The translations under genes were made by a program, and so were the position numbers. A DNA stretch of 64,000 bases, taken from positions 248,001 through 312,000 of the forward strand of contig OZ237739.1 of assembly GCA_965178125.1 (NCBI GenBank), given 5' to 3'. Below, piece after piece: positions 18,313 to 52,127 of the stretch. Below the pieces are notes generated by a model, which saw only the letters and a list, made by a program, of their open reading frames with translations, did no database searches and was not told where the DNA came from. How positions within the stretch are numbered: the stretch's first letter is position 1; each line of letters starts with the position of its first letter. The stretch comes from Bilabrum cf. latius. Taxonomy: Eukaryota.

Positions 18313-18368
18313 TCTCGCAGTCCATATGAAACCCGTAGTATACTACGGGTTTCATATGGACTGCGAGA
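18313..18368. repeat. Perfect 56-bp terminal palindrome (left)
   Basis: tctcgcagtccatatgaaacccgtagta|tactacgggtttcatatggactgcgaga. Confidence 0.98.
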
Positions 18369-18615
18369 GTAGAGTATAGGGGATTTTACTTTTGTTAAAA
18401 GTAATTACTTTCCATGAATTGTACAAGAGTCGAAATTTCTGACTGGGTTATTCTGTACGTGCAGAGATGGATCGGGAGAGAGTGTTGCTGGGCGCGAACA
18501 GATTCTCCTGCGAGTTGCTGTGGATTCCGCAATTCCTTAATGGATATAATTTACTTCTCTAGGGGTTTCAAACGGGCGAGGGGCGGTCGCGGAGCGCACG
18601 TGCGGAGCGCGTGGT
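18313..18615 (+). repeat. Left terminal inverted repeat (~303 bp)
   Basis: Reverse complement of 51825-52127; near-identical in the outer part, with several differences in the inner ~80 bp. Confidence 0.95.
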
Positions 18616-18635
18616 GTAAGATATTGTTCAGTATA

Positions 18636-18910
18636 TTTAAAAGAGTTCCACATTTTGTGTCTCAGTTTTTTACTTGGTTTAGTACGGATTTAATACAGAT
18701 GTTCCATGTTCCACATTTTTTTCACACTCTCTCTCAATATTTCATTTTTGACATTTCTCTGAAAATTTCGTTTCGAAATTATCTGTGGTTACAAAAAAAA
18801 CATGGAAACATGGAACATTTCTTTTAATCTCTTTTAAATTATGGAACAAAACATAGAACAAACTTAGAACAATCAAATAAAAAATCTTAGAACAAACACA
18901 CAAATTATAA
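18636..18910 (+). repeat. Subterminal diverged inverted repeat, partner of ~49870-50135
   Basis: aaagagttccacattttgtgtctca...ttacttggtttagtacggatttaatac...catggaaacatggaacatttcttttaat is mirrored at 49870-50135. Confidence 0.85.
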
Positions 18911-18939
18911 CTCTATAAAATATATAAGGTAATGGTTAT

Positions 18940-19461
18940 ATGGATCAAACCCTAAACCCCACACAACTAACTCATCTTGCCAATCGTTTCAGCATACCCA
19001 ATTTCAATTGGATACAATACAAAGATATCTTACATCATGGTTTACCCCAAGGCGATTTCGTACTTTTTTACCCTCAAGAACAATATGGCAACACCATCAG
19101 CGGTCACTACACCTGTGTTATTCAAACTCCCAATGTTATCTATTTCTACGATCCTTATGGCGAACTTCCTGATACACACAAAGTAAACCTTTCTGGTGCA
19201 CAAAAACAAATCCTCTACGATCGCAAACTCAACCACCAAAACCTCACCAAGTTACTCTGGCAAACTGGTAAGTTAGTTGATTATTCCCACTACCCACACC
19301 AACAATACTCCGATGATATCGCAACATGTGGTCGACACTGCGTCTTACGCCTTGCCAATCGCTAGATGAGCAATGATCAATACCACAAGTACCTAAAATA
19401 CCTTAGCAAACTAAACAATCAACCCAATCTAGATAAACTAGTGTTTCAAATAACTCAGTAA
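18940..19461 (+). CDS. Virophage maturation cysteine protease
   Basis: GHYT, YFYDPYG and HQQ...TCGRHC give the H-D-Q-C catalytic set. TAG at 19363 is read through to TAA. Confidence 0.88.
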
Positions 19462-19484
19462 TTATTATCACTGGTAGTAATTAT

Positions 19485-20396
19485 ATGGCAAAAAGTCACG
19501 TAATTGATTACCAATACGTAAACCTATAGTAGTTCAACCAAGGCAAAACCGATCTTGAAACCAATCTTGAACAAACACGACAATCAACCTTCCTCAAACC
19601 CAACAAAGGATACCTGTTTGGCATTGTTAGATGGTTTATTAGCAACGGTGTTGCCTTACCCGTTTTCCAAGCACCACTCAATCCACTTTCAATCAGTGTT
19701 GAACCCAATTCTGGCACTGCCGAAATAATTGATCTTACCTTTTCCGAGGATCTGTACTACAACATGCAGGATCTCGTCGCCGAACTCAATGCCTCAATCA
19801 AAGTTGCATGTGATAATCTATCCATTGGTACAGGTGATCAACCATCAGTTAGTTTCGACGGTAAACTATTTTCCATCAACTCCAATACCGCCTTTCGTTC
19901 CGCCAATCGTCTTGGATTCAACCCCAGATTAACCCGAATGTTACACACTTTTCGTTTTGAATCAGGCAGCGGCAATCCATCCGATAGTTGGAACTGGCTA
20001 CTACTAGAAAATGATCTCGAAACACAATTCACCGATTCACTCGAAAATATCGATCCTGTTGCCCGTATCCTTATCAAAGCACGGGGTTTACCCATTAATC
20101 AAGAACTAACACCTTTACCACTCAACTCACAAGGCAAAATCTCCGATAAAAGCGAAAGTATTGTTACCGATTTTAAAGTGGTTATGACCAACGGATCTCC
20201 TTATAGATCTTTCTTATATAATGCTAGTAGCACTCCACGATGGACTCAAATGCTGGATGTATCTGGTAGTACTAAAAACTTAACCTTTGAATTATACTGG
20301 TTAGATTATAGAGGTGTTGAAACAAGAATAAGTTTACCCAGCGAATCAGCCGCCGATATCAAGGGTTTGTTTAAGGAAATTAGCGAATTCACTTGA
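19485..20396 (+). CDS. Minor capsid protein (penton)
   Basis: N-terminus YVNLQQFN...EQTRQSTFLKP..YLFGIVRWFI...LPVF and C-terminus LTFELYWLDYRG...ADIKGLF fit the virophage penton pattern. Lies directly upstream of the MCP. Confidence 0.75.
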
Positions 20397-20421
20397 TTTT
20401 TTTTTCTACAACCTAGTTATA

Positions 20422-22143
20422 ATGAGTGAAATTAACTCTAATCTCCCTTTAGAAATTGGAATCAGCAAAAGCTACCAATTTACTGCCCCCTCTCAACTTA
20501 AGTACCAAAGTCAAGCCGATGCACGTAATGCGGTTTATGAGGATCACCCATCAACCAAACCACTTTCAAACACTGGTTGGAGCTACCGTTGGCAGTTTGA
20601 TCCTGCTGATGGATTGCTTGGTATCCCCGATATGGAATTCTAGAACCTTAGTTTCTTACTAACTCTCAATGGTGGTGGCAATCTTGTCCCCGATGACCTT
20701 AAAAACAACCTTGGTATCGCCACCTTCGGCGAATCATCAGTTGTTGAGAGAATCGATTTCAATCAAGCAGGACAAAATATCCAAACCGAGCCATCCAAAA
20801 TGCGATACATCTGGGCTGGTATGAACTCCATTGAAGTCAACTCCCTTATCACCAATGGTCCTGAACCTGATACCAGTTCAAAATATGTACCTCTGGCACA
20901 AAGCAATGTGCTTCGGGATGGTTTTAACTCCACCTCAAACACCAACACTCGCGGTTTAGGCTTACGTTACAATGCCACTCTGGAGGCTGTAGATGCCGCC
21001 ACCGTTAGATTTACTATTCCCAGTTTAATTTGCCGTCTACCCTCCGATGCTTTTGATTTCAAATCAGAGTACCCAAAACCATGCAATAGCATGGATCAAT
21101 GGAATCTTGAACTAAAACTTAATAACGTTGCCGCCAGCCTTGTTCGTTCTGGTCTTGACGACTTAAGAGTTGCATTAGAAGGAGGAACTGTAAATATGCG
21201 TCTACACACTAAGAACGCTGCACTCCAAGTTCCTCTCAGCACCAATTACGCCTACCCATGGGAAAAAACAATTCCTCATGAATTTCAGGGTAATACTGCT
21301 TTACTTGCTAATAGCGAAACCGTTGTCAGTATTCCCATCATCAGAGAAGACGTTGTTCCCGATATGTTTGTTCCTCATGTTGTGGTCAATCGTGGTGCTG
21401 ATGATTATGGTCCTGATATAACTCTACCTATTACTCACATAAGTTGCACCGTCGGCAATAAATTCAAACTTCTTGATGATCACAGCACTCGCGATCTTTA
21501 CGATTTAGCCGTTTCAAATGGCTACGTTGGTAGTTATGCCCAGTTTGCTGGTTTACTACTCAACCCCGCTGAAAGTACCCTTGCCAATTAGGTACTCGCC
21601 AATTGGAGCATCTTACCTTTACGCCCCAGTTAGATGCCACTAGATGCCGAATTAATGAGTGGTGTCAAGAAAGAGTTTAGACTCACCAGCCTACAACTCA
21701 CCATTGCCAACCGCACAGCCAATGCAATCGCAGCCGGCGATTACACCATCCAAATCCCTTTCATGTATGGCGGATACATTGAATTTAAAAATGGACGCAT
21801 TCAAGCCAAAGAGGTTGTTATTCCAGTAGCCAAAACACTCACCAGCGCTCCTGTGGTCTATCTTGAGGATGACAGCGAACATGCTATTCAAGGCGGACGC
21901 GGTGGACGCGGTTGGAAGAAATTCAAGAACTTCGTCAAGAAAGCTACACCATTTGTCCAAAAAGCCAGCAAATTTGTACGCAACCTACCAGGTGTAAACA
22001 AGGTCGCTGGTGATAGTACCGCTCTAGGACAGGTTATGAAAATGGCTGGTGCTGGTGTAAACCATGTTGGCGGTGGGGTTTAGATGGTTGGAGGTCAAGT
22101 GATGAGTTCAAGCTAGGCAGATGCAATGGGAGGTTCTTACTAA
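20422..22143 (+). CDS. Major capsid protein (double jelly roll), 573 aa
   Basis: Three track ORFs fuse in frame via TAG. Virophage-sized, with a basic Gly-rich C-terminal tail (GGRGGRGWKKFKNFVKK...GAGV..GGG). Follows the penton gene. Confidence 0.8.
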
Positions 22144-23999: not shown

Positions 24000-25133
24000 T
24001 CAATTACTACAATACAACATGACCTCATTTGGAAAGACCCTCTTGTTTGCCATGGCTTCTCGCTTTGGTAGTCGTGCATGTTGTACCTTTTGAAAGAAAG
24101 TCTTTAATCTCTCTATTCGCCTCAATAACTCATCTAAATCTGGAGCATAGTTAACATGATAGGCTACTACCATCTTTTTCAATCCACTAAAATCACATTG
24201 ATCCAAGATCGGCAATTCTGCTCCCTCTATATCCATCTTAACACAATCACAACCCTCGATTGCCTCTTTAAAACTAATGGCTGGCACAATCACCCGTTTT
24301 CTTCCTCTCACCTTTCTTAAGGTGGTATGATTCCACTCTGATTTTGCTAGATACAAAGGGATTTCTCGGGTCTCACTATCCGCCACCACCGCTTGGTTAA
24401 AACAATTATCGGGGGTTACAGAATTCTAAACCAATATATTATAATTACCCTCATCTGGTTCATAACTCTTGATTGCTATTCCATGCATCTAACATCTGGC
24501 TGTAAATGCACCAATATTTGCTCCGATATCACACCACTTCTCCCCTTTCTCCTACTTGAAAAACTGTGTATATTCCATCTTTTTTCCTAACAATTCCTTA
24601 ATCACCTTGCTATCAGTAGTTTGCGGTCTCTCTACCAAATGATGATGATGATTATAAAAAACCAAACTGTATCTAGTACCTGTGAACGGTGCTGTCCAAT
24701 GCTCCTAACTGTGACCATAAAAGTAAAACGGTTTCCGATTAATATCGATTTGCTATTGAGTTCCATCCTAGTTTTTTACCACTAACTCTCCTCCTTTGTA
24801 ATTTCCAAAAGCCACAATCATGGTTATACCTTTGTTTAGGCTATCTGTATGAGGGGCACACAAAAAGTTTTTGTTGACGGTTATATTGCTGAAACGCAAA
24901 TTAGGATCAATCTAGCGCCCCAACTTCACCAGCATTTGATGAATCTCGGGATTCTTAACCATAACAGTACTTGGTTGCCAAGATTTATCTTTAGAAAACA
25001 TTTTCTAGACCAATCCAAAGTTACAAGTTGGTATACTTTTCTTTCCACCTGAAATCTTACGTCTTGTTTTTCCAACTGAAAAGGTAGGAAACTTCCACTG
25101 TTCTAAAGCATTAAATACGCTATCGTAATTCAT
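24000..25133 (-). CDS. TET/JBP-like 2OG-Fe(II) dioxygenase fused to an FkbM-family methyltransferase, 377 aa
   Basis: N-half: [47 protein letters not shown] (HxD...H...RxS). C-half: [14 protein letters not shown] and VKMDIEGAE. Continuous frame via TAG. Confidence 0.8.
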
Positions 25134-28142: not shown

Positions 28143-29153
28143 TCAGAATAAAAAGCACTTGCTTTGAGTGACAGCGTATCTATTAATCTTATCTATGTAC
28201 ACCCATCGACTAGATTTAAACTAATCCTCTAAAAGATGCATCTGTTTCTTGTTTAAACTCAAATATTTATCCATTAGGAAGTTACGGTCTCTCTCGGGAG
28301 TCTATCTGTAAATAATATAACTCTAACACTCTCGATGCAACAAACGGGTTTTCCTGTAATCACTGGGAGAGTGCGTAACCCATATTACACTCGCTCCATG
28401 GGATCTTCCTTTAACAAGTAAGTGTTCCGCTAAAAACATGGCTCTTGATTCTAGTTCACCCTCGATATCATCAAACATCAACACACTTGGACGTTCTAGC
28501 AATTTATGCAATCCCGGTGTGAAAGCATATTTACCACCTCTTTTCATGGCAACTTTCATTCTATCCAAGGCTTTCTCACCCTCAATCCTTTGTTCTGGAT
28601 CCATGCCTTTCTTTGTATGTTTAAACTCAATTACTGCATCTCGATATAATCTTGCTGAATCGTCTGGAACAACCAGTTCATGAATCGGGACTTCTATCAT
28701 TCCTAATTCTTTGAATCGAGATTCCTAGGGTTTTCCGTTTACTACTACAATCTACAAGTTTGGATTTAAGTTTCTCATTGTTTGCAATATCTCAATTCCA
28801 AGAGTAGTCTTGCCACTTCCAGCCATTCCAAAGTTGTAAATACAACAACGAGGACTCTCTTTAGTCATCAAGGGGATGATCTTTCCACTCTAGTTTTTAA
28901 ATTTGTAGATTTTAAAACCCCTATCTCGTAACTCCTCCCAGTGCTTTGGTTGATTCTTGACGATTCTAGCCTTGCGTTCGCCGATCTTGTACCTTAGGTA
29001 AGCCTAATCTACTGTTTCTTCTTCTGAGTCTTCAGAATCGCTGTCGCTTACGTTTTCATAAACTTTCGGCATGAAATAAATCACCTTTCCATCTCCGTAA
29101 AGTGAATATGCTATTGGATTACTGTTTTCCTATCTCATGGTACTTAAACTCAT
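28143..29153 (-). CDS. Packaging ATPase (A32/FtsK-HerA family), 336 aa
   Basis: MSLS..PIA N-terminus, Walker A GMAGSGKTT, Walker B VLMFDDIE, GRSHGASVIWVTH, TRLLHREC and SRWV. Confidence 0.9.
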
Positions 29154-31209: not shown

Positions 31210-32415
31210 ATGAATAGTATCACAGATAAATAGCGAAAAATACTCAACCACTTGTACTACGATAAAAAGAGTTTTCTTGGACGGGATCGCTTTTGGAAAC
31301 TTGCTTTGGATTTCGGTGTAGATCTACCACGACGAACCGTCTACTCTTGGCTGAGTAATCAAGAGGTGTATCAAATGCAAAAACCAACACGCCAAGCCAA
31401 AAGTATTAAATCTACTCGATCCAAAGCACCATTCAACAAACTACAAATAGATCTAGTTGATATGAGTAGTAGCACAACAGCAAGAGGAGCAAATTGGTTA
31501 CTAACTGCGATTGATGCCTATACCCGAAAAGCATACGCTTTGCCAATGAAAAATAAAAATGAAAAGACTGTTCTTGATAGTTTAGATCTTTTGCTGGATG
31601 AACTACCCAAATTACCCAAATCCATCTAGAGCGATAACGGTTCAGAGTTTATCAACAAGAAATTTAAAGCCCGTTTAAAATCCTTGAAAATTAAACAGAT
31701 TTTGAGTACTGCAGGAAAGCCTTAGACCAATGGACTCGTTGAAAGATTCAATGGCACGCTCAAAAGATTTATTAAAAGCGATTTACTGAGCACAGGCGAA
31801 AATGATTGGGATGTTAACTTGCCATTATATCTCAAAGCATACAATTCCACTCCACAAACTACCACGGGTAAAGCACCTGATAAATTGGTTGAGGAATGGA
31901 AACAATCAAATATGAAAGAGGCTCCTGAAATCAAACAAGCATCCAAGCAAGATTTGGCAACCCAGCAATTCAAGATTGGCGATCAGGTACGAATTAAATT
32001 AGTCTAGAACCAAAACTAGAAACGTGCGGAAAATTGGTCCAAGGATTTATACCAGGTTGCCGAGGTGTTTAAGCCACGATAGCCTTGGAGTCCTTTCCAG
32101 TATCAAGTTAAGGATAGCCAGGGAGGCTTACTTAAAACCAAGTATGGCAACGAGGATTTGCAACAAATCAATGCGGTGGAAAACAAGAGTAAATTAGCGG
32201 AGCGATTTGAACTTAGTAGCATTACACGTCCCAGTGTCCGAGATGGCGAATAGGGATACATTGTTAGATACAAAGGATACTCTAAACCGGAATGGAATAG
32301 CCTGAAAAATTTGGAATTGGATGTACCAAAAATGGTACGGCTATTTGATAAGCGACACAATGTGGTTTGGAAAAAAGACAAGAAAGACAAATGGACTTTC
32401 TCATGGAAAAAATAA
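31210..32415 (+). CDS. Retroviral-type (rve, DDE) integrase with C-terminal SH3-like and chromodomain-like regions, Polinton/mavirus type
   Basis: LQIDLVDM, LTAIDAYTR, IQSDNGSEF, PQTNGLVERFNGTLK, YNSTP.TTTG.AP, FKIGDQVRI and YIVRYKGYS..EW. The conserved Q residues are encoded by TAG. Confidence 0.93.
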
Positions 32416-33512: not shown

Positions 33513-33547
33513 CGCGCTGTTAAAAGAACTGGATATCATTTATGCAT

Positions 33548-33600
33548 TAAATCATTTACATAAAAAATGATTTAAGGCTAATTTACATTAATTAGAATAT
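33548..33600 (+). promoter_or_regulatory. Conserved upstream dyad AAATCATTT-N~8-AAATGATTTAAG followed by an AT-rich TATA element; putative viral promoter, with further copies at 35318-35370, 35953-36000, 36513-36566, 36871-36925, 37446-37503 and 40990-41027
   Basis: The same motif lies about 25-35 bp before the ATG of successive accessory genes and is oriented with the gene. Confidence 0.65.
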
Positions 33601-36870: not shown

Positions 36871-36935
36871 TATATATATAATAAATCAAATTAATCTTAA
36901 ATGATTTACTTTTAAAATGATATCCAGTTGTTCAG

Positions 36936-37445
36936 TCATGATCCCCAATTAACGTACCAGTATCCATTTCTAGGAGACAATCCTTCAAAATACTGATGAT
37001 GGATATCAACACCACCAAACCATTTGGATTGCAATCTAGCCTCTTGTTCGAGTTCCAGAATACAATCGAGTAAGTAACGTGTGGTAAATCCGCCTTCCTT
37101 ATTGCTATCGAATGATTTTAGGGTATCGAATGATTTAAGCCTGATCTATTTTTCAGGATAGACAATTTTATCAAGTAAATCATCTGGATAAGGGAGGAGT
37201 TTACTCTCATATTTATTTTCAAGAGTTGTAACATGAACCAACAATGGTGACCAATGGATTCCAGTTGGTACAGTACCTTCATCAACACGTTCGTTGTATA
37301 GAGTGCCGATGCGATGAACTGCTGATTTATCGATTTCAAATATCAGATTAGCAGAAACAGCTTCTAGCAAACAATTTTTGTTTTGAATAGTTAATCGTGT
37401 ATCGAAATCCTCTGGAATTGATTCATCGGAGTCGCTTCTTTCCAT
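36936..37445 (-). CDS. Hypothetical protein ending HHQYFEGL...WGS* (a pattern I associate with large-DNA-virus hypotheticals)
   Basis: 169 aa via TAG; GFTTRYLLDCI...GGVDIHHQYFEGL...VNWGS. Confidence 0.55.
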
Positions 37446-37525
37446 ATATATATTATAATAAACAAATTAATCTTAAATGATTTCTTTTTTAAATGATATC
37501 CAGTTTAAAAAGCCATGAGCCATAA

Positions 37526-37768
37526 CTATGAATAGTTATTTAAATTTAGTTTCCTTATTTCAATTCCTCTAACTACCTTTGTAATTTTACCTTCATATCT
37601 GGCTCTGAGAACTTGATATCCTTGCTTTACTAGGAATTTACGTAGTTTCATTGGTGAGATTTGCATCTCTTGTTTAAACCTCTCTCGCACCTCGCTCCAA
37701 ATTAGAACGGATGATAACGAGGGTTGAAAGTATTTGTTGAATGTATCTAACTGTTGTTTGTCTGTCAT
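37526..37768 (-). CDS. Stand-alone copy of the helicase C-terminal (winged-helix-like) domain; true end may extend past the TAG
   Basis: SSVLIWSEVRE..ISPMKLRKFL..VLRARYEGKITKVVRGIEIR aligns with the helicase segment SSVLSWNEIRE..ISPQALRKFL..ILRTSYKGKTLKIVKGVELR. Confidence 0.7.
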   Translation of the reverse strand: MTDKQQLDTFNKYFQPSLSSVLIWSEVRERFKQEMQISPMKLRKFLVKQGYQVLRARYEGKITKVVRGIEIRKLNLNNYS

Positions 37769-37795: not shown

Positions 37796-38068
37796 TTCAT
37801 TTATTTGGTTATGATCAGAAAAAAATGAAAAATGTTCAGAATAATCGCAAAATGTCAAAAAACTGAGATTTTGAGATTAGCGCTACTCAAAAAAAAAATT
37901 AAAAAAAAAAATACTCCTAAGAGCAGTTTGAAATCCAGACCAAATATTCCTATCATAAAACTCTAATTTCCTATCATAAAACTCTAATTTCCTATCATAA
38001 TTCCTATCATAAATTTTATTCGTAACCAAATATTCTTATCATAAATCTTATCATAACCAAATAAAAAT
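37796..38068 (+). repeat. Internal inverted repeat (left arm) with TATCATAA iterons
   Basis: Reverse complement of 40701-40973; the outer ~165 bp appear identical. Confidence 0.92.
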
Positions 38069-38071: not shown

Positions 38072-40621
38072 TTAAATTTGACATTGTTCGCTATCATCAT
38101 CAGTAAAACTATCAGGAAAGAGCTTCTGGTACTAACTAAGTGAGAGTTCGGAACTCTGTATTTCTTCATCTTGTGGTTCGGATTGATCCCGTAACTCAAC
38201 TCCTTTGACTATTTTAAGGGTTTTACCTTTGTAAGAGGTTCTAAGAATAGAGCACTTTTGTTTTTCTAGGAATTTACGGAGTGCCTATGGAGAGATTTTA
38301 ATGTATTGATCAAATACTTCCCGTATTTCGTTCCAAGACAAGACGGATGATTCATCTCTGTGAAAGCATTTTTTAAACACTTCAAATCGAGTAGAGGGTT
38401 TAGAATCAACCTCAATTATCGATTTAGAAAAGGATTCTGGTCGAGGATATTTACGTGCCGGAATGGGTTTGTAAGCGTGTAACAAACACCATAAGAACGC
38501 AATATAGATTTCAGGCTATCTAATTTTTTCTCTTAGATCTGTGATGCAATCCTCCTATCCAACCACATCCGGATCTTTCTTGCTGAATTTCTTTGGAAAA
38601 ATAACAGGCAAACAAGTTTGAAAGGCATCGTATGGATTGGCTTTTGGATAAGAGTTAAACAGCATGAAAAAGGTGCAGTTGTTTTTCATTGATTGTTCGT
38701 TTTCAAACATTCTACGAGTCTAGAAAACATCACCGCCACTTGCAACCACACTCTTAATTACCTCACCATCCAAGGTAATGGTTGAATTGGATTTTTTGGC
38801 AATCCCTGCTTCATTGGTAAAACACAATCTACCAGTATTTATCTTGCTCGTAACAGCAAATCTGTTTCGTTGGGCAACATCACTGTTGGAAACATCAGAG
38901 CAAATAGGAGGAACTGAATCCCTTGCATAGTTTCCAATGGCACACTTGATGATATCCATAAAAGTACCTTTACCACAATCGCGCTCACCAACCCAGCAGG
39001 AAAAATATTTATCTTCAACATGTCCGGCAAGAGCTCGTGCTAAAATAAATAAGTTGTAATCAACCTCATCTTGGGTTTCGAAGGCGTTAAAAATGGTTTT
39101 CTTGAGGTACTGGATTGATTGGTAGTTATCCTTTTCAATATTTAGTTGTTTAAATGCATCTATAGGAGCAGGGTATCCAGTGTTACATAGTGTAAATCGG
39201 TTTTCAAACTCCTCGAATTTTTGAGTGGCGAAATTCCATACTTTATCGGTAAAAAACAGTAATCCTTTGGTGGATTGATTGATCTGATCGATAAATTCAA
39301 CATCATTGACAATTAATGAGGTATCTCCCAGAATGGTGGCAACAATGTTTTTGGCGTTCGTGTTGTTGGCTGAGTAAGGTTTGTTGTTACGAGTTAAGCG
39401 TAGGGTTTGAACCATATTAAAAAGAGGGTGAAATTTATTGAATTTGCTGTAGTGCTGGTAGAGATGTGTGGATTTATCGAGACAATAGATAGATGATTCG
39501 GTAATTACGACTTGATTCTTGTAGATTTTCCAAAACACTTCGGATGCCTCTAAATCGCTATCCACTTCAGATCCTTCTAATAACTCGGGGGAATCATCAC
39601 TGATTTCGGTTTGTAGTTTTTCTACGATTTCTCGAACCATAGTGCCATCGATTGGTTTAACGGTTAATTTGAGTTTAAAACCAGTAATTTTGGTAATGTG
39701 CTATTCGATTTCAGGAATAATTGATTCGATTAGTTTATGATTCATGCTATCAACAAACACACCATCGAATTGGAAATCCGCAACATCGAGATTATATTTG
39801 CGTTTTAAGAAATCGGCAATCACAAGTGTGATTTTGTGTTCAATGTGTTGCATCACAATGCTAAACTTGCTCACATCCTATCTATTTTGTTGAATGGATT
39901 TATCAGAACAATGAACAATTTTCCAAGTATCACCCATGTGCTGTTTAACCGCCTTGGCAAGGGTTTCAAACTCGGAAGCCGCTTCCTAAATTCTATTGTA
40001 TGCCCATCGGCTATTTTTTTTGAGATCGGCAACTCCACCAAATCCAAGTTTTCTAAGGGTTTTTTCCAGTGAACCTTTATAACAAACAGTAAATACGAAA
40101 GTTTTGCATTGATCCTTGGTTAGTTTGTGTTCATCCATGAATGGTTGAAAGATGGCTTTGCGATTCTTAACAATGTACTCAATGCCTTTAGGAACAACTC
40201 CATTCATTAAAACGGGATACAATTGGAAAGCAAACTCGATGTGTGCATTGGCAATATCGAGATCGGTGTACAGGTTTTCAAACAAATAGTGCCGAATGCC
40301 ACGAATGATTTGAACAGGAGTTATCACTTTTTTGGAGACCAGTCTGCCGAAGTTGTTTTTAACATGGAAAGTAAGAGGAATCGAACTATCTTTTGATCCC
40401 GAAAGCCACTAGTTACATGCGTTAGCAACCATAGTTGTTTGTGCTTGAACATCCTATTGTTTGGTTGAGGTGTGAATGATTTTGGGCATGATAAACTTGA
40501 GGTACTTTTTAACTAGTTCGACCTTTTCCATTGGAAATTTCATCTTGGTTTTTACTTTGAATCCTGTAGTTTCGCAAGGCACTAATTGTTTTAACATCAA
40601 ATCAGATTGGATCGTATTCAT
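38072..40621 (-). CDS. TVpol (PolA-derived primase-polymerase) fused to an SF3/D5-like helicase, 849 aa
   Basis: FGRLVS, YTDLDIANAH and FQFDGVFV in the TVpol part. Walker A GERDCGKGT, LCFTNE, IKSVVASGGD and FNSYP in the helicase part. Continuous frame via TAG. Confidence 0.85.
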
Positions 40622-40700: not shown

Positions 40701-40973
40701 TATTTTATTTGGTTATGATAAGATTTATGATAGGATTATTTGGTAGTAAGTAATTTTTATGATCAGAATTATGATAGGAAATTAGAGTTTTATGATAGGA
40801 AATACTTGGTTTATGATAGGAATATTTGGTCTGGATTTCAAACTGCTCTTAGGAGTATTTTTTTTTTTAATTTTTTTTTTGAGTAGCGCTAATCTCAAAA
40901 TCTCAGTTTTTTGACATTTTGCGATTATTCTGAACATTTTTCATTTTTTTCTGATCATAACCAAATAAATGAA
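40701..40973 (-). repeat. Internal inverted repeat (right arm)
   Basis: Mirror of 37796-38068. Confidence 0.92.
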
Positions 40974-41027: not shown

Positions 41028-41318
41028 ATGGTAAATCATAATTTTAAGTTGAGTATAAAGGGGGATCAATACATAGTTCGAAATGCTCAGATGGGGGTTG
41101 AGTTGATTAAGGAAAAGTATCCTGAGTTAAAAATTAGTGTAGCAACTCTAAAATCAATTAAATAGGGTAAATACTATAAAAATAGTTCACTGCATAAGAT
41201 TTACAAAGTGGATAAGCTAGAAGAGGGGGAATACTTTCCAATTCGCAAACCAATGAAATGGGTATCAATGGATGAATACAAAAGCCTTTTATCCAAGATG
41301 ATTATGCATACTACATAA
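41028..41318 (+). CDS. Hypothetical 96-aa protein, paralogue of 36568-36870
   Basis: YIVRNAQMGVELIKEKYPEL...LKSIKQGKY. Confidence 0.55.
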
Positions 41319-42421: not shown

Positions 42422-42834
42422 ATGCCAGATTATTCAAAAGGAAAAATTTATATGATTTACAGTACCGAATCACCAGTACTATTGCCATACTATGGCAGTA
42501 CCGTCAAGACATTAAACAGGAGATTGAATGGGCACAAAGATCACTTTAAACAATGGCAACACGGCAAGACGAACAACTACTCCTCATTCAAGTTGTTAGA
42601 ACGTGGATTTGATAAAGTAGCGATCAAATTGGTAGAAAATTACCCGTGTTCAACAAAACAGGAACTCCTACTGCGTGAAGCATACTACATTAAAAACAAT
42701 CCTTGCATAAATTAGTGTACTCCATCGGGTATTATTGCACATACATAGAAAGAATGGCGCAGACAATATACCAAACAATACCATCAACTCAATAGCGATA
42801 AGATTGCTGAATAGAAAAAAAGGTATAATCAACT
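42422..42834 (+). pseudogene. GIY-YIG endonuclease copy 2, 5' part (interrupted by Ngaro)
   Basis: N-terminus nearly identical to 27537-28109; rejoins 49495 in frame (CAA CT|C AAT AGC). Confidence 0.88.
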
Positions 42835-43296
42835 TGATGCCAGAGTGTACGCGCAACCTAGTCTCGTTAACAATCAGACATGGCAAGACCTGACAAAGCT
42901 GTGCCTGTGCGCTACCCTTGACCGGACTGACCGGGGCTGGGAAGAGCACGTGCACTACTCCGCCGAGGAGGAGGGGGTTGGGAGGGTGGGCAAAAATTAC
43001 CCAATCTCCGCCCCTCTCCTGAACACAGAGAGGGTATGCGCGTCATCGCAAGCAATCCGTTGGCTTGGTCGCACCTTCCCGGTCGCAACCGCCATCGGAA
43101 CGCAACGAGACGTTCACGCGCTCCCACTCTGGCATCAACACCGAACCCCATCCGGCGTTAGGATCATGATGCCAGAGTGTACGCGCAACCTAGTCTCGTT
43201 AACAATCAGACATGGCAAGACCTGACAAAGCTGTGCCTGTGCGCTACCCTTGACCGGACTGACCGGGGCTGGGAAGAGCACGTGCACTACTCCGCC
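42835..43296 (-). repeat. Ngaro 3' split direct repeat block B1-A2-(26-bp spacer)-B2
   Basis: Identical copies visible directly; the internal junction ggatca|tgatgcc reproduces the two element ends. Confidence 0.95.
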
Positions 43297-43336
43297 AAAT
43301 CTTACCGCCATGTCTTGTACGCTGCGGCTGTGTGGC

Positions 43337-44395
43337 TCACTCCAAGTTCAGCCGCAGCGCGCTGGCCAGCACCCACACTGGCCTGTTCAAATCGAGGCTC
43401 CTGCCGCCGAGCTCCAGAGGAGGCAAGCCTTCCCTGACGCCCCGCAAGTACACCTCGCATGCAGATGCCGACTTCCATCTGCCGAATCGCCTAATGACCT
43501 CGAAGGCGACCCCAGCACGGTCCAAACACATCACTGCCGCGATGCGGATGGAATGTCCGTGCACCGCTCCTGCAACTTCTCGTGAGCAGAAGCTGCGGAG
43601 CGCCCGTACGACCTGCGCCTTGACGATCGGCTTCGTGTTCGCCACGAAGACTGGCCCTGACGTGGGGCAGCTGAGCGCCAGCTACCGGGCGTAGTCTTCG
43701 TCTGCGCCTGCAGTTGGGGCGTGGCTCGCTGCTGCCCACGCCACGAAGGCTCGCACGCCGCAGAACCTGCTGCCTGTGACTGCCCATCGTCCGGCTCTGC
43801 AATGGACTGCGATGGGCTCTGCGGCTTGGATGGAGAACTTGGCTGGACCGTCGGCTTTGTGGAGGCCCAGGCGGATGGCAACACCATGGATGCGTCCGTC
43901 TCGCGTGATGAACTGCACTTGCTGCCATTGGAGGCCGGCTTGTCGTCTGGACGCACCGACGAGCTCTCCCAGCCGGAGGCCCCCACAGAAGCAGAGACAG
44001 ACAGCTGCCCGAGCAGCCTACTCTGTTGTGCTGCAACCGGCTGTCGAGAAACACCGTCGGATTGCGCGGAGTGGGGCTGAAGATCGACGCAACGGGTGCG
44101 CCGATGGCGATGCTTTGTGGTAGTACCGGAGGATGCTGTCGAGCTAGCTTGACCGTGGGACGCCGCACGCTCCTGTGGACTCGATGACGACTCGCTAGGC
44201 ATTTCTGGTGTATGTAGCGATGGTGCCGCCACTGAGAGGCGAACATTCCCCTAAGAAGACTGCAAATCTCGAGAGCGCTGCATTGAGCCTGAACGCGAAG
44301 AGTCTGCGAGCTGCTGGAAGATGCCCGTCCATGAAGCTGCGGTCGATGTCGTACCACGTGAGGAAGTTGTCGAAGTGCCCCCACGCCGTGCGCAA
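43337..44395 (-). CDS. Ngaro tyrosine recombinase (start uncertain; -1 frame relative to pol)
   Basis: GLRLGEL, HKAD, HGHSIRI and FGRWKS..CEVYLR; four track fragments join via TAG. Confidence 0.85.
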
Positions 44396-47300
44396 CCCAC
44401 TGAGTCCAGAGTGGCCACCAGCGTGAAATGGTCGTGCTTGTACAAGGTCCTCCAGATCGGCGTGGGACAGTCGACCTGATACACCGCGTCCAGGTGCGTG
44501 TATGCCTCCTGTGAGCCGCGGCTCAAAGCGTCCGCAACGATGTTGTCCTCGCCAGGAATGTGTTTCACGTGAATCTGCACATCTTGCGTTGTCTGCAGTA
44601 CGAAGATAGGGCGAAGTAAGGCTGCCATGATGTGGCTCTTGGGTCTGCCGTAGCGTATCAGCTACACGGAAGCATCATTATCACACCACAAACGCACCAC
44701 ACGTCCACGCAGGTGCTGTCGCCAATGCGCCAGTGCCAACAAACATGTTGCAAGTTCTGCCGCCGCTACATCCTTCGCCTCTAGGCGATGCGGCCAAGTG
44801 CCGTGGATGCCGGTGTGCGATGTGATGTTTCCGTCCGTGTCGTGGAGAAGTAGCTCGGCGCCGTAGCCTGTCACCGACGCATCAGTGCGAATGATGGGAC
44901 AGTCAATGGTGCCCCGCATCGGAAAACTGCGCCCGCCTTTGCGCTGGATAGCCACCTGGAATCCCTCGAGGATTTCCCCAACTGTGAAGCCACCCTTGGA
45001 CACGAAGGAGGTGGGGACCCACACCTCACCTGGTCGTGACCGGCTGGCCTACTTGTGAAGGGCCCAGCCCTTGGCGTCATACAGGGGACGTAGAGCACCG
45101 CGCATACCATAAAGTGCGCCCGACAGGAAGGACAACTTGCCGACCAAGGTCTCAAAGCTAGACAGCAGCATCCCCTTCGTCGTGAGTGCCTCGTGCAGTC
45201 TGCGCAGGACGTCGGTGGCCTTGTCCTTAGGGCACCGCACCTCGTGTTTGATCAAGTCGTAGGTGAGGCCCAAGTACTCGAACACCGGGGCTGGGGCCCC
45301 TTGCTTCAATGCTTTCGAGATGCTGACGGGGAAGTTTGTGGAGTCCAGCTGCCCCATGGCTCGAATTGCCCATGCATCGACTTCGTGATCTCCGCCGAGG
45401 CAGGCAAAGTCATCTACAAACACCTCATTTTCGACCTACCAATGGCGGGACTAGTCTTGGGCCGTCTTGACCTGTCCCGTTGTCGTGCTAGCGGCAGGCG
45501 GGGTGGACGTTGCTGACGAGTTCGCCTGGGGCGCCTGGTCCGTCGTGCTGGATTGGGCGTTGGCGTGCTGCTGCTGCCGGCGTCGTTGCTTCTGCTTGTG
45601 TCTCCGTCCGGGTCGCATGGCCCTGCCAATGGACTGCTCCTCGAGGGCTTGGGCCAAAGCCGAACTGATCGTAGTTGCGAACGCGGGAGATGATGAGCTG
45701 CCCATAGAGAGCCTGAAGTCTTGCACGATGCGCCCGTCGGGCAGCTTGATCAGGTTGTATTGGAGATCCTCCACTGCCACCGGCAGGACCCGAAAGTACG
45801 AGGAAATGTCGACGACGTATCCGCTGGCACGCTTGGGGCAGGATCGAACTGCTGCGGCTGCCGAGCGCAGCACGTCCATGCTGCTCGTCTGCTGCACAGG
45901 CGTGGCTGCACTGTAGTCGATGGCCTTGTTCAGACCGGTACGCTGGCCGTTCACCTTGAGTGAGGAGTCCTGAAGGAACCGTAGCTTTGTCGAGTCCTTC
46001 TTGGGGATCACCAGCGGCCGGGCCCGGGCTGTGTCGAAATCTTTGGGTGACACGAAGTCACGCTCGCCAGCCCGCATGGAGCGCCCGATCTCGCAGGCGA
46101 TCTCCCACTTTTCTTCCGGAGACAGCTTACGGTCCTTGTAGTCTAGATCGTGCTCTTTGGGCACCTCGTCCACGATGGCTAGGGGGCAACCATAGTTCAG
46201 TGCTGCCAGTACACGCTCGACTCGTGGGAGGGCTTTGAACTCGGCAAGGGACGGGGCCTTCCTCGGTGTGCGGCCGCCAAACAGAACCTCCCGCCGAGTC
46301 CGCAGTGTTGCAGTCTAGCGAGGCACCTTGTCGAAGTACTTGCGTGGCGTGAATGCCAGCGGGTCTTCGTGAACCTTCAGGTGGATCCGCTCACGGTCCC
46401 ACGTCGCAGCTGGAGCCTCCACGAATTCGCCGGGACAGTCTCTGGTACGCTGGTGATCGTCCTTTCGCTGGATGAAGTCCTCTACGGAGGGTGCTGTCGT
46501 CCCTGCCCACTCATGGCTTGGATCCGGAGCTGGATATGCCCAGTCAACGAATGCTGGAGAGATGTCCGTCCTACCTGGCAGCCTCGTGGATGACGCCGTG
46601 GGCGGCCGCTGCGGTCGCTTAGGGCGCGCTAGGGCCACCAGGACTGGGTGAAGCGCGGGCGTTGACGTGACAGGTGGTGTGGAAGCAGCACACGCGTCCG
46701 ATGTGGTGGTAGTCTGCGTACGCCCCTGCGGCAGTGTTGGTGTTGGAGTGCTGGGCTGGCTCTGACGTGACGTACCTCGTGGGGGAGGGTCAGGTGAAGG
46801 CTCCTTGGACTTCCTGGTGGAACCCCCGTCCTGCCGGTCCGCACGCTGGTGCTGGCCACCTTGCTGGCCTGCACCGCCACGTCCACGGCCTCGACGGTGT
46901 CGACCTCCGCCACGATCGGTACTGGGCTGGTCGCTGTCGCCCCCACTGCGCCTGGAGCCTCCACTGCCCCCGCCTCCACTGCCCCGGCCTCCACTGCCCC
47001 CGCGGGGGTCGAAGTGACGGGACAGTGCTGCTCGACGGGACGGCGCCTGCATGTCAGCCTGGACTCCCTGTAGCAGTCCGCGCACGAGGCCAGGTTCGCC
47101 TGATCTGCATGCCTCAGTGGCCCACGGATGCAGCAATTGTAGGAGACGCATGCAGTCGCCAGAAGAGCACGAAGGAATCTCATTCCCAACAAGGTCACGA
47201 ATCTCAACGTCACAGCGTTCGCCTGTATGGCGCCAAGCATGGGAGGAGAGCATCTCAAAGGCTGAACTTCCGCGTGGTATCACACACACAGCGGCAAACA

Positions 47301-49290
47301 CCACCTCTAGTCGGGACGCCGATGCAGATGATGCCCCGGAAGCACTAACCAAACGAAGAAAATCATTGCGAACCTGCCCCAGGGTTTTCCAATCGGGCAC
47401 TAGTGATGCTGGACACGACCACGAGCTGCTGCCCTGCGGCAACCAGGACGGCAAGGACGCCGCCGAATGCACGCAAGCAGCGCGCACGAGCACACAGCCT
47501 AAAGCAAAGGAAATAGCCGAGTAAATAGTGCATAGTAACTCGCTAGATGGCACCTACTTTTCTCGTCCGCCTGCAGCAGACGACTCCGAGTTGGACGCAT
47601 CGAACTTCCCAAAACTAGCATTGCTCATCGGCAGAGCTGCATGAAGCCGGCTCGTGAACGAGAAAATAGCCGATTCAATCTTGGCTCTCGTCACGGCCTG
47701 ACCAAACAGAGCACGGGCCAGTTCTGCAGCGAAATCGCGGCCGCTAGCGTCCAAATGAAGCGCGTCAGCCTAGCAAAACCGCGGCATGAACGCGGATTGG
47801 CGAAAGATCGAGGTCAACGTTGCCAAGAAATCATCAGAAAACCAATTCTGCATTCGAATTGCAGCGATTGAAGGTGCAGAGGCCTCACGCTACAAAATCT
47901 CCACTGGTTGCGAGCGAACGGCCGCGGAGTCCACTGCCGTGCCTGCGCCCGGTGAAACTGGGTCAATTGAAGACGCAGGCTGCGGTGAGGCAGAAGATGA
48001 CACAGGAGGTTCACGGGGTGGCTGAGGAGCGGGTGTAGCGTCGACCGGTGGCGGGGATGAGTGCATCGAGGCTGCCAGTCGGTGCGAGAAGTACCATTGT
48101 AATTCCACGTGGGCGGAGAGGCGCGACAGCAGCTCTTCCTGGCGCAGAGTCGGAATGCTGTGCCACAGCGCAAACAGGCGTAGATGCAGAATTGTCGCTG
48201 GGTCGGCCGTTCCCCGCAGCGTCGTGGAGTGCAACACTGCCCGTTGGAGATCCCCAGGAAGGCGGCCCCAGACCGCGTCAAGCTAGCGGCTGGTGCCCGG
48301 AGTCACGCCGGGGGAGTCGTAAGCCGGAGACACACGAGGAAGAAGAAGCTGAGGGCCTGCCGGGCCCGTTGACCGTGATGCTGCACTGCTGAGCGCCTCC
48401 GCGAGCACTGTCGGATCGCCGAAGTCCCGAGTGCCTGGTCTACCGGGGATCATGCTCGAGGCAGGTGGAGGTTGGTGCCGCGGGGGTGAAGACGTTGAGA
48501 AGTTGGGCTGGGCGCTGCGCTGGGTATCTGCTGCTGTCCCCGGGGGCCCGCGGTTCGGGGACGCGTGCAGGTGGGCCCGCCCGCCGCGCGCGAGCGGGGC
48601 CTGCCGCGTCGTCGAAGAGCCTGGCCGCGCCCGCAAGGGCGAAATTCCGCGGCCTGTCCTGGTGGCACTCTACGCCGTTCGGTCGCGTCCAGGTGAAGCA
48701 TGGATGGCGGCGCCGAAGTCGAGGCGTCCTGGTGGCCGATGCCGTCCGCTAAGAGGAGCTGTCCGCCGGCCCGTCGGTAGTGAACTCAGGGACCATGGAG
48801 ACTCGATTGAAGAAGGAGCCTCTGGAGATTGCTGAACATGATGAAGACGTACTTGTCCTGCGAGTCGCTCAGGCTGTTGCCGTCGAGGGGAGCTCGGCGA
48901 TGCCGGCAGAAGCAGCCGTGCACCGAGAGTCGTTAGCGTCCCATTTGACACGAACTTGGCGAGAGCGGTGCTCTTGACAGCATTAATGGACCGTGATGCC
49001 GTGAAGGACTGCTTTGATGAGTACCTGTCGAGCAAATAGCACAGGAACCCCGCATCGTGTGCACGTTGAAGATCAAGATCTCGAGGCGCCATGGTGTCGC
49101 GCTGCACGTTGAGACGAGCAATGAAATCCGAGAACACAGCATCATTCATACCATATCGAGTAGCTAAATCGGCCAACGTGACCGCAGGTTGGCCTACCGC
49201 GCGAGCGAACACTGCAGCTGCGGCGATCACCCTGGCGCTTCCAGGTGCCCGCGCCGCCGGGTCGATCCGATGGCTACCGGCGCCGTTCAT
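43531..49290 (-). CDS. Ngaro Gag-like/RT/RNase H polyprotein, one frame of 1919 codons with TAG=Gln
   Basis: All gaps between the track fragments were checked and contain only TAG. RT: VVDISSYF, LSMGSSSSP, FVDD. RNase H: TDAS..GYG, AEL, CDN, HIPG..N..AD.LSR. Confidence 0.85.
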
Positions 49291-49318
49291 GTTAAATGAA
49301 CGGAGCAGGAACTTTCTT

Positions 49319-49494
49319 CAAAAATTACCCAATCTCCGCCCCTCTCCTGAACACAGAGAGGGTATGCGCGTCATCGCAAGCAATCCGTTGGCTTGGTCGC
49401 ACCTTCCCGGTCGCAACCGCCATCGGAACGCAACGAGACGTTCACGCGCTCCCACTCTGGCATCAACACCGAACCCCATCCGGCGTTAGGATCA
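49319..49494 (-). repeat. Ngaro 5' A1 repeat
   Basis: Identical to 42991-43166. Confidence 0.95.
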
Positions 49495-49768
49495 CAATAG
49501 CGACAAGATTTCCGAATAGAAAAAACGATACCGCCAAGCCAACCGCGATCAAATTCTAGAGCAGAAAAAATAGTACCGCAAAACCAATCGCGATAAGATT
49601 AACGAGCGACAGCGCGAGAAGATCACTTGCGAATGTGGAGCTGTTGTTTGTCGTACTAACATAGTAAGACATCGCCGATCCCAACAACACCAGCAACAGC
49701 TCGAACAGCAATCCAAAGCAAAACCCAAAATCAAAATCAAAATCAGAATCTGTACCAAGAGCGAGTAA
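49495..49768 (+). pseudogene. GIY-YIG endonuclease copy 2, 3' part
   Basis: NSDKISEQKKRY...KITCECGAVVCR..H....H...KIKIKI, matching the C-terminus of copy 1. Confidence 0.85.
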
Positions 49769-49869
49769 ATTGGTAGGGATTTAATCGTAAATCACGCATT
49801 CTCTGTGTAAGTACATAGAGAATATCTAAGCTTTGTATTGCTCTCTAGTAATCCAATATATTTAGTATA

Positions 49870-50135
49870 TTATAAGTGTGTTCTCAGTTTTTTTGAGTTG
49901 TTCTAAGTTTGTTCTAAGTTATGTTCCATAATTTAAAAGAAATTAAAAGAAATGTTCCATGTTTCCATGTTTTTTCTGACAACCACAGATATTATGATAA
50001 TTTTGAAAATGGAGAGAAATGTGAAATGAAATATTGAGAGAGATTGTGAAAAAAACATGGAACACAGAACATCCGTATTAAATCCGTACTAAACCAAGTA
50101 AAAAGTGAGACACAAAATGTGGAACTCTTTTAAAT
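49870..50135 (-). repeat. Subterminal diverged inverted repeat, partner of 18636-18910
   Basis: Reverse-complement similarity, for example gtattaaatccgtactaaaccaagtaaaaa and gagacacaaaatgtggaactctttt. Confidence 0.85.
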
Positions 50136-51362
50136 TTCAAGTAAATCCATGATTGCTTTGTATTGATCTCTAGATAACCCTTTGTAATTGATTTGTAGGT
50201 TGTACAACCCATCTTGTTTAGATAAGAGAACCGAAGGTTCAGGTGGAGTAGGTTTGTTAGGAGATTGAGTTTTCATTTTTTCATCGCTTTCAATCTCGAT
50301 CACAGGTAGAGTGGATTGTTTGTTATGTTTAGGTTTAATAGGCTTAAGTATAGGTTCAGGCGATTTTATTTCCACTATAGGTAGTGAGATCTGCTTGGAT
50401 TTGATCTTGATCTTGGGTTTAGGTTTAGGTGATTTCAATCCCAGTACAGGTAGATCGCATCCATCTAGATGCTCCTATTCCTCACTGGTTCTGTACTCTT
50501 GGTAGTAGGTTTTCTGGGTTTTCTTAGAATGCCCCATGGCACTGCACAGTGCCTTGCGTTCCTCAATGGATAGACCACGTGCCATTTGACTGCTCCAGAT
50601 TTTGCGGATATTTTGGGGTGAAACGTAGCACTCCAACCATTTCAGGCTGTAAGGTTTAACCAATCGACTGGTGAAATTCTTTGCACCGCTATTCCACAAG
50701 GGCGTATCATCGGATAGTAGACTGGCAATCTCCACCACTCGATCGTTGATGGGCATATCTCGCTCCTAGGATGTGCCAATGACCACCCCCTTGTCGCTGC
50801 CCACCACCAGCACCTTGCGATCGAGATCGATTCGATTGGGGAAAGATGGATCTGTGCTGATAACTAATTGGCACAGAGCAGATGGTCTGATTGGAGATAT
50901 GTAGTAGAGTATGGTTAGAAACAAGAGTGCCACCTGCTCGGGCTGCTTGAGCCCAGTGGCATCCACAGCACCTAACCGCTCTTGAGCCTGCTAAAGGGTG
51001 AGAGGCAGATCCTTTTTGGGTTGCTCTTCGCGATCTGATTGAAACTTGAGCGCCCATTCGCCTTTGGTTTTGCATAGCAGGTGAAAGCGCTCGCTCTGGC
51101 AGCCTTGGCATCCGAGGTAGGCTGTTAGGTGGTGCAGGGCGTAGTAGCATCGCATCGAAGCATAGGTGCTGTTGAGTTGTTTCATGGCGGTATCAATTTG
51201 TTCTTGGGATAGAGGGGCGTCCTGGTTGCATCCAATCTTTTGGAGTAGGGCGCGGAGAACGGTGTTGCACTCGCGATGGTAGTTGCCCAAGGTTTTGGGA
51301 TTGTGGTACTGTGTGGCTAACCATGCCTTGATTTCTTGTACTAGTGTATTAGTAGAACTCAT
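50130..51362 (-). CDS. Virophage tyrosine recombinase / possible telomere-resolvase-like protein, 410 aa
   Basis: Four track ORFs join in one frame via TAG. Catalytic pattern PIRP (R), SDKG (K), NIRKIWS (R) and MGHSKKTQKTYY (H, Y). Confidence 0.75.
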
Positions 51363-51824
51363 ATACTATAATAATGGTAGAAAAAAGGTTTCAATTTTAT
51401 GAAATGTAAAAATGTTAAGGTTGCAGATTGCACTTGTAGTTGTGAGAAATTTGCGAGGGGTATCACTCGTTAAGGAAAGAGGTTAGAGAGCAGGGCGCAA
51501 CACAATAGGTGGATAGTATAGTAAATGATATAATGGTTTGGGTAGAAGTTTAATTGTAGCTCTTAATCGGCAAGGAGAGGCACGAGGAAATGGTGAGGCA
51601 CCTCCGATCTACAAAGGAAAGTGCTCCGGTCTACATAGGAACGGAGCAATGCCTCACGGTTGATGCCTCACGACCAATTCAGGGGCGAATGGATCAAAGC
51701 ATTAGATCCTTGAACATTATACACATGTGTAAGAGATCAAACCATACTAGTGCTGAGCAGGAAAGGGAGGGCATGGCGGAAAGATCATAAATCAGGGGTG
51801 CAAAGAGAGGTATCGAGGACCTGA

Positions 51825-52127
51825 ACCACGCGCTGCGCACGTGCGCTCCGCGACCGCCCCTCGCCCCGCTTGAAACCCCTAGGAAAGAAATAATATCCAT
51901 TTAGGAATTGCGGAATCCACAGCAACTCGCAGGAGAATCTGTTCGCGCCCAGCAACACTCTCTCCCGATCCATCTCTGCACGTACAGAATAACCCAGTCA
52001 GAAATTTCGACTCTTGTACAATTCATGGAAAGTAATTACTTTTAACAAAAGTAAAATCCCCTATACTCTACTCTCGCAGTCCATATGAAACCCGTAGTAT
52101 ACTACGGGTTTCATATGGACTGCGAGA
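51825..52127 (-). repeat. Right terminal inverted repeat, ending in the same perfect 56-bp palindrome (52072-52127)
   Basis: Reverse complement of 18313-18615. Confidence 0.95.

Follow-up and report, generated by a model that had tools for sequence, protein, structure and literature searches.

A probable TAG-recoded virophage with a nested Ngaro retrotransposon in an exon of a GC-rich protist

The stretch of DNA analyzed here, hereafter called the window, comprises 64,000 nt of contig OZ237739.1 from Bilabrum cf. latius (assembly GCA_965178125.1, positions 248,001 to 312,000 of the forward strand) and harbors an AT-rich insert of 33.8 kb at window positions 18313-52127. This insert is very probably a virophage of the kind represented by mavirus and the endogenous mavirus-like elements (EMALEs), 27.2 kb in length and invaded by a 6.66-kb Ngaro retrotransposon. 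The insert interrupts a coding exon of a protist with a GC-rich genome and few introns, in which the stop codon TAG is a sense codon, most probably for glutamine (Gln). A TAG-recoded virophage lineage is the part of this finding that appears to be new.

Virion genes, ends, and insertion site

The assignment to the virophages is based on the capsid and penton proteins, both of which match solved proteins of mavirus and Sputnik. The major capsid protein was recognized by the Pfam family MCP_V20_C (PF22031; E-value 1.7e-11, 44.3 bits at a cut-off of 27), and in the PDB it matched the capsid protein of mavirus (6g45, E 2.2e-10) and V20 of Sputnik (3j26_A, E 7e-6); these two viruses were the only sources of capsid proteins among its PDB matches up to an E-value of 1. 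The penton protein matched the minor capsid protein of mavirus (6g41, E 8e-23) and a minor virion protein of Sputnik (3j26_N, E 2.2e-4). Judged from these comparisons, the element is very probably a virophage, as an initial annotation made from the DNA letters had proposed, and not a polinton-like virus. The putative packaging ATPase is similar to phrog_2666, a terminase large subunit family of the membrane-phage packaging ATPase type (E 3.5e-6). Its matches to HerA (0.0039) and VirB4 (0.015) remained below the cut-offs, no Pfam family exceeded its cut-off, and a tblastn search against a phage collection gave no match. Upstream of the penton gene lies a putative cysteine protease gene, and the order protease-penton-capsid is known from mavirus. 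The initial annotation had regarded the morphogenesis genes as complete; this holds for capsid and penton and weakly for the ATPase, whereas the protease was called by its position and a visually recognized motif.

The insert, which measures 33,815 bp with the Ngaro and 27,155 bp without it, differs from its surroundings in base composition. The GC content of the window has a background of 58–70%, falls to 33–46% from approximately 18.3 to 52.1 kb, and forms an island of 56–61% at 42.8–49.5 kb within this AT-rich region; the average is 37.9% in the element minus the Ngaro versus 63.2% in the host flanks. The insert is bounded by the features that had been claimed for it, terminal inverted repeats and a 5-bp target-site duplication. 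A repeat search found the arms of the terminal repeats to be 95% complementary, and in an alignment of both ends the outermost 225 nt are identical and the inner 78 nt diverged. The outermost part of each end (18313-18368 and 52072-52127) is a perfect palindrome of 56 nt, the same 56-mer being present as direct and inverted repeat, and thus each end could fold into a hairpin of 28 bp. In the main text of the publication on EMALEs by Hackl et al. (2021; PMC8547959), the terms “hairpin” and “palindrom” have no occurrence.

The left end extends beyond the 303-nt repeat into approximately 250 nt that match 49888-50135 at the right end. The outer and inner repeat parts are separated by 19 nt at the left end; at the right end 50136-51824 lies between them and contains a predicted recombinase gene. 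A joint leading from 50135 directly to 51825 was considered as a recombinase-free form of the element and ruled out, since it represents the left end of the element aligned onto the right end, the letters in between being the reverse complement of 18616-18634.

In silico excision of the element together with one TGGGT copy leaves a single minus-strand frame of 797 codons that is open across the junction (472 before and 325 after it). This continuity shows that the element sits within an exon of the host. A match to GBP-type GTPases in the upstream part of the disrupted frame is below the cut-off (E 0.013). The disrupted gene (52133-53550, minus strand) and its divergent neighbor (53726-56281, plus strand) resemble paralogs, their P-loop regions being similar by eye; the GBP-family match was obtained for the first of them only. 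When the leftmost 5 kb including the left junction were used as query, 0.83–0.99 of the sampled words were found in six sequencing runs that belong to two studies and two organism labels, and no RNA run carrying this region was listed among the runs matching the query. A run with a third organism label (run X7, organism C) contains a related terminal repeat, aligned at 51826-52101 over 275 nt with 15 differences and three gaps, and also related Ngaro repeats (aligned at 42834-43502). Hence, relatives of both the virophage and the Ngaro occur elsewhere.

TAG as a sense codon

Under the standard genetic code, the region 18313-42834 contains nine frames of at least 150 aa, which sum up to 2225 aa. 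If TAG is treated as a sense codon, it contains 26 such frames with a total of 7595 aa (approximately 93% coding), and the corresponding controls yielded 19 frames and 4216 aa for TAA as sense and 17 frames and 3542 aa for TGA as sense. The 25 virophage genes contain 79 in-frame TAG codons (about one per 90 codons), as compared to 48 CAG and 259 CAA, and with the Ngaro included 16 of the 26 genes end in TAA, 10 in TGA, and none in TAG. Eleven in-frame TAG are present in the 1919-codon frame of the Ngaro. In the host flanks, a minus-strand frame with a TMEM131 Ig-like domain (3-12215, at least 4071 codons) contains 24 TAG, a minus-strand kinase frame (56496-61463, 1656 codons) 18 TAG, and a frame of 852 codons five TAG, all three being free of TAA and TGA. 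TAG is a sense codon in virophage, Ngaro, and host alike, and TAA and TGA remain stop codons. Both the dependence of the element's genes on TAG as sense and the non-standard code of the host had been anticipated by the initial annotation. The host genes in the window are very long uninterrupted frames, and the catalytic domain of the kinase is split by an insert of approximately 650 residues.

According to the residues to which TAG aligns in homologs, its meaning is most probably Gln, as in codes of the NCBI table 15 type. In the rve integrase, residue 172 is encoded by TAG and falls on a conserved Gln of retroviral-type integrases (Ty3, PFV) in all five alignments shown. In the C-lobe of the host kinase, a TAG aligns with a Gln of PDK1 in three of the five alignments shown, the others having Ala (a PDK1 sequence) and Glu (yeast PKA). 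The TAG sites of the C5 cytosine methyltransferase are at variable positions. Close relatives from metagenomes have Gln at 13 of 18 TAG sites of the window, but Gln in such full-length relatives does not count as independent support, since these proteins also occur as fragments that end exactly before those Gln. Five truncated relatives in the database (P0002, P0006, P0019, P0021, and P0022) each terminate just before a Gln of the full-length form, three of them at TAG sites of the window itself. Therefore, the relatives also carry in-frame TAG, and such relatives were found in several metagenomes; the truncations agree with the earlier statement that gene calling with the standard code would discard the element as a degraded relic, since such callers do break it up. 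The only tRNA gene in the window has the anticodon CAT, does not read TAG, and is located inside the element. Downstream of its 3′ end, near 34200-34230, lies a T-arm-like remnant that was scored as nothing.

Integration, replication, and accessory genes

The rve integrase aligns with the integrases of Ty3 and PFV at the D, D, and E positions of the catalytic triad. A chromodomain suspected by eye at its C-terminus received no Pfam support. DDE integrases make short target-site duplications and tyrosine recombinases do not. The 5-bp duplication together with the intact DDE triad suggests that the element would have been inserted by its own rve integrase. The predicted tyrosine recombinase, if real, might act on a different target, a role that Hackl et al. 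(2021; PMC8547959) proposed for the enzymes of EMALEs and Sputnik.

This second enzyme of 410 aa retrieved only near-identical, close, or truncated relatives from 1.84 billion protein representatives. Its AlphaFold model has a low confidence (pLDDT 44.1), and a Foldseek search with this model listed tyrosine recombinases or integrases in 21 of the first 22 rows, among them XerA, Cre, Tn1549, Brujita, and an integron integrase (best E 0.02, probability at most 0.87, TM at most 0.27). By eye, the residues R159, K183, R253, H278, and Y287 form a series with a spacing similar to that of XerD. The function as tyrosine recombinase, which the initial annotation had assigned, is likely; no match was obtained by sequence, and the fold signal in its favor is weak but consistent.

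Replication of the element would be accomplished by the primase-helicase-type protein instead of a protein-primed PolB. The C-terminal half of this protein is SF3/D5-like, with matches to DUF5906 (E 2.7e-6) and to the DNA primase family phrog_1156 (E 1e-12, residues 508-823). For the N-terminus, the AlphaFold model has a pLDDT of 38.7, and its Foldseek matches were ribosomal proteins, which we take as noise. An atlas look-alike search with the relative P0004 provided leads only (D5_N 0.86, DNA_pol_A 0.77). Thus, the SF3 part of the TVpol-SF3 helicase named in the initial annotation was recovered, and TVpol was supported by none of the tools. The presence of an rve integrase and the lack of a recognizable PolB had also been stated there; in agreement with this, no PolB family matched any of the 31 reading frames of the element sent to Pfam, the largest of which has 849 aa.

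The helicase gene alone is flanked by inverted repeats of 271 nt, whose arms are 94% alike and contain at least six TCCTATCATAA-like units each. These repeats could be an origin of replication or the ends of a cassette, and either they or the terminal palindromes might be involved in replication of the element. Next to the repeats, two gene relics were observed: 37553-37750 on the minus strand (66 aa, 50% identical to the C-terminus of the helicase) and 41037-41174 on the plus strand (55 aa, 35% identical to orf100). Together, the repeats and the adjoining relics look like the traces of a replacement of the replication module.

The accessory genes comprise a set for the modification of DNA or chromatin, with two C5 methyltransferases, a TET/JBP-FkbM fusion, and a SET-domain protein (Table 1), and they also include RING and MORN-like repeat proteins. 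The motif TATA(0–2 nt)ATG marks 14 of the 26 gene starts, as compared to 2.7% of the 972 ATGs counted across the whole element. The tetranucleotide TCTA, the late-promoter core of mimivirids that is used by mavirus and Sputnik, is located at most 70 nt upstream of 15 of the 26 genes versus 30% of random 70-nt windows. Both upstream motifs are signs of real and co-regulated genes. In addition, six small genes at 33520-37505 share an upstream module of approximately 45 nt, in which a 9-bp hairpin (AAATCATTT / AAATGATTT) is followed by TAAGATTAA; this module is a second class of promoter or terminator beside TATA-ATG and TCTA.

Table 1. Features of the insert and its borders (positions in the window; in-frame TAG given where counted per gene).
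Feature	Position	Strand	Evidence or remark
Left target-site duplication, TGGGT (5 bp)	18308-18312	.	Directly outside left end
Left terminal inverted repeat, 303 nt	18313-18615	+	Repeat search
Inner part of left terminal repeat	18635-18882	+	Inverted match to 49888-50135
Putative cysteine protease, 173 aa, 1 TAG	18940-19461	+	H..D..Q..C by eye; place before penton gene
Penton (minor capsid) protein, 303 aa, 2 TAG	19485-20396	+	PDB matches
Major capsid protein, 573 aa, 5 TAG	20422-22143	+	PF22031; mavirus and Sputnik capsids
Lipase-like protein, 475 aa	22189-23616	+	Lipase_3 E 3.2e-4, 21 bits (cut-off 22); SA1320 family E 5.9e-9, below cut-off
TET/JBP-like dioxygenase-FkbM methyltransferase fusion, 377 aa, 8 TAG	24000-25133	-	Methyltransf_21 E 2.4e-9; Tet_JBP E 2.9e-6, below cut-off
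SET-domain protein, 124 aa	27176-27550	+	PF00856 E 3.7e-6, 27.7 bits (cut-off 22.4)
GIY-YIG nuclease, intact copy, 190 aa	27537-28109	-	PF01541 E 1.1e-6
Packaging ATPase, FtsK/HerA-like, 336 aa, 8 TAG	28143-29153	-	phrog_2666; Walker A motif
rve (DDE) integrase, 401 aa, 7 TAG	31210-32415	+	PF00665, E 1.4e-16
C5 cytosine DNA methyltransferase, 356 aa	32442-33512	+	PF00145 E 4.5e-63; M.HhaI E 3e-38
tRNA gene, anticodon CAT (Met)	34085-34157	+	ARAGORN; Rfam tRNA 63.7 bits
Left arm of 271-nt inverted repeat around helicase gene	37796-38066	.	Repeat search; TCCTATCATAA-like units
Primase-helicase-type replication protein, 849 aa, 10 TAG	38072-40621	-	DUF5906, phrog_1156
Right arm of 271-nt inverted repeat around helicase gene	40703-40973	.	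Repeat search
Second C5 DNA methyltransferase-like gene, 248 aa	41629-42375	-	PF00145 E 3.4e-9
Second GIY-YIG copy, 5' part, cut by Ngaro	42422-42834, resumes 49495-49768	+	Frame comparison
Ngaro-type retrotransposon, 6660 bp, GC 61%	42835-49494	-	Split direct repeats, RNase H
Predicted tyrosine recombinase, 410 aa, 3 TAG	50130-51362	-	Weak fold signal; R..K..R..H..Y by eye
Right terminal inverted repeat, 303 nt	51825-52127	-	Repeat search
Right target-site duplication, TGGGT	52128-52132	.	Directly outside right end

Alternative readings and comparison with known systems

Several observations weigh against the interpretation as an EMALE-like virophage that uses TAG for Gln. The similarity to mavirus is distant (2.2e-10 for the capsid protein). 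The putative protease has no match in Pfam, PHROGs, NCBIfam, or the PDB; neither has the predicted recombinase, also when searched as a profile, nor was the latter found by tblastn against the phage collection. No family was matched by the replication protein over its first 345 aa, the searches having included Pfam, NCBIfam, and tblastn against the phage collection. As for the code, the sites that argue for Gln are few, one in the virophage and one in the host kinase, and the other alignable TAG sites correspond to other residues: Lys and Thr in M.HhaI, Thr or His at residue 140 of the rve integrase, and Ala and Asp in the mavirus capsid protein. The Gln in close relatives may be circular, as the full-length calls possibly read TAG as Gln.

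The most serious alternative, which we consider quite possible although the less probable reading, is that the element, although complete in structure, persists merely as a passenger that is dead or has been silenced, made oversized for its capsid by the Ngaro, so that this copy could not be reactivated. The invader has the split direct repeats of Ngaro elements in the order A1-[ORFs]-B1-A2-B2 (ORFs, open reading frames; repeats of 176 nt and 130 nt), and its ORFs match RVT_3 RNase H above the cut-off (E 8.5e-6) and Phage_integrase below it (E 6.2e-5); no Pfam match to a reverse transcriptase was obtained for its frames. With it the element grows from 27,155 to 33,815 bp, and one of the GIY-YIG genes is split, whose frame is open for 228 codons once 42835-49494 is removed. 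Past rearrangement is also evident from the two gene relics, and the terminal repeats have become dissimilar over their inner 78 nt. The initial annotation had noted no broken genes apart from the GIY-YIG copy hit by the Ngaro; the split of that copy and the open core genes agree with this, but the two relics make the statement slightly too strong. However, all core genes are open, the outermost 225 nt are identical at both ends, the duplication and the host frame show no decay, and the second GIY-YIG copy is intact. Furthermore, in a contig of sequencing run X4 position 42834 is followed immediately by 49495, and thus a Ngaro-free form exists as DNA. An inserted Ngaro also occurs in about one in four EMALEs according to Hackl et al. 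(2021; PMC8547959), these Ngaros being GC-rich and approximately 6 kb long. The virophage itself would depend on a giant virus, to which the upstream TATA-ATG and TCTA motifs are indirect pointers only, and expression of its genes would await the arrival of that virus. It may still be active today, and the initial annotation had suggested that it might be reactivated.

It is improbable that TAG, as a sense codon, encodes an amino acid other than Gln, such as Glu, Tyr, Leu, or Lys, or that it serves ambiguously as both a sense and a stop codon. Most TAG sites that align with distant homologs are indeed variable, as illustrated by the residues in M.HhaI and the integrases listed above and by the Glu of yeast PKA, but the integrase site at residue 172 falls on an invariant Gln in each alignment shown, the kinase site on Gln in the majority of them, and none of the 26 genes ends in TAG. 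Even less probable is an assignment of the element to the polinton-like viruses or to the Polinton/Maverick transposons. These share with virophages a double jelly-roll capsid, a layout with ATPase and rve integrase, and terminal repeats with a short duplication; yet the capsid protein belongs to a virophage-specific Pfam family and finds only mavirus and Sputnik capsids within the PDB range considered, the penton protein matches that of mavirus, and PolB is lacking among the frames sent to Pfam. An assembly artefact that joined free virophage DNA to host contigs is the least probable explanation of all: contigs do stop near the terminal palindrome (records ending at 52101), but the same 5 bp on both sides, a host frame that is continuous for 797 codons after excision, and a left-junction query almost complete in six runs from two studies argue against it.

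If the element is a TAG-recoded virophage, then this has several consequences. Virophage surveys use the standard code, and a TAG-recoded lineage is fragmented by them and reads as decayed, compare the truncated database relatives. Since host, Ngaro, and virophage all read TAG as sense, the virophage is tied to the translation system of the host lineage; recoding would be a marker of host range and a barrier to moving between hosts. The known cultured virophages are translated by the cell and transcribed and replicated in the factory of the giant virus. From this division of labor, the giant virus that serves a recoded virophage would be expected to tolerate TAG as sense as well. As a tentative and rather doubtful extension, the element might be the first described virophage lineage with its whole genome in a TAG=Gln code, point to an undiscovered, code-compatible giant virus, and use its palindromes or the 271-nt repeats with their iteron-like units for a hairpin-primed or origin-dependent replication, which would be unlike the protein-primed mode of mavirus.

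In the literature searched, no virophage with reassigned TAG was found. No related loci were found in viral contigs, searched with the capsid protein and a helicase alignment, or in metagenome contigs searched with a capsid alignment, and a back-translated capsid pattern matched neither the viral nor the metagenome contig collection. The closest parallel for the code are endogenous viruses of Streblomastix strix, whose capsid genes use the TAA/TAG=Gln code of their host (Bellas et al., 2023; PMC10120064). As far as the accessible text describes them, these viruses are likewise integrated, belong to the wider Polinton/virophage supergroup, and share the reassigned stop codons of the host. Unlike the present element, they have capsids of the polinton-like “Metamonada” group, their code reassigns TAA as well as TAG, and the same text describes no complete virophage genome for them.

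Among the virophages with solved capsids, mavirus shares the homologous capsid and penton proteins, the rve integrase, terminal repeats, a duplication of 5–6 bp, and the protease-penton-capsid order (the protease being putative in the present element), but has a protein-primed PolB and the standard code. Sputnik possesses a primase-helicase-type replication protein, like the present element, and a tyrosine recombinase, as predicted for the present element, in place of PolB and rve. It has the family of the capsid C-terminal domain (PF22031) in common with the present element; in contrast, it lacks an rve integrase and uses the standard code, and the capsid match to it is weaker than that to mavirus (7e-6).

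The combination of modules in the element is already known, contrary to the initial annotation, which had considered it unusual. Endogenous virophages of Halocafeteria seosinensis pair rve with a tyrosine recombinase (Yrec) and have D5 primase-helicases (Haro et al., 2026 preprint). In the portion of the preprint at hand, host transposons are described to invade them too, these invaders being MULE and LINE elements and not Ngaro, and the terms “genetic code”, “TAG”, and “stop codon”, which would indicate an altered code, have no occurrence. The same layout has been published for the mid-GC EMALEs (types 5–8) of Cafeteria burkhardae. According to Hackl et al. (2021; PMC8547959), these elements are devoid of the protein-primed PolB (pPolB), their primase/helicase ORF is longer, and each of them carries a gene for a predicted tyrosine recombinase next to that for the rve integrase (rve-INT) in its repertoire. 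The earlier statement that EMALEs pair rve with PolB is, by the same source, true of the low-GC EMALEs only. Following the published description, the mid-GC EMALEs are integrated in a host genome of approximately 60–70% GC and have terminal inverted repeats and duplications of mostly 3–5 bp, the rve and predicted tyrosine recombinase genes, a long primase/helicase ORF without pPolB, an inserted GC-rich Ngaro of approximately 6 kb, and a penton gene before the capsid gene, in all of which the present element resembles them. The layout of rve integrase, predicted recombinase, and primase-helicase with Ngaro superparasitism, known from Cafeteria, thereby reaches a host with a different genetic code. 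The element, which is likened to EMALE05-08 by description only, differs from them in its GC content of 37.9%, which is in the range of the low-GC EMALEs and not in that of 47–53%, in its length of 27 kb with many extra genes (two C5 methyltransferases, TET/JBP-FkbM, SET, RING, MORN-like, and tRNA), and in that its genes are open only if TAG is read as sense.

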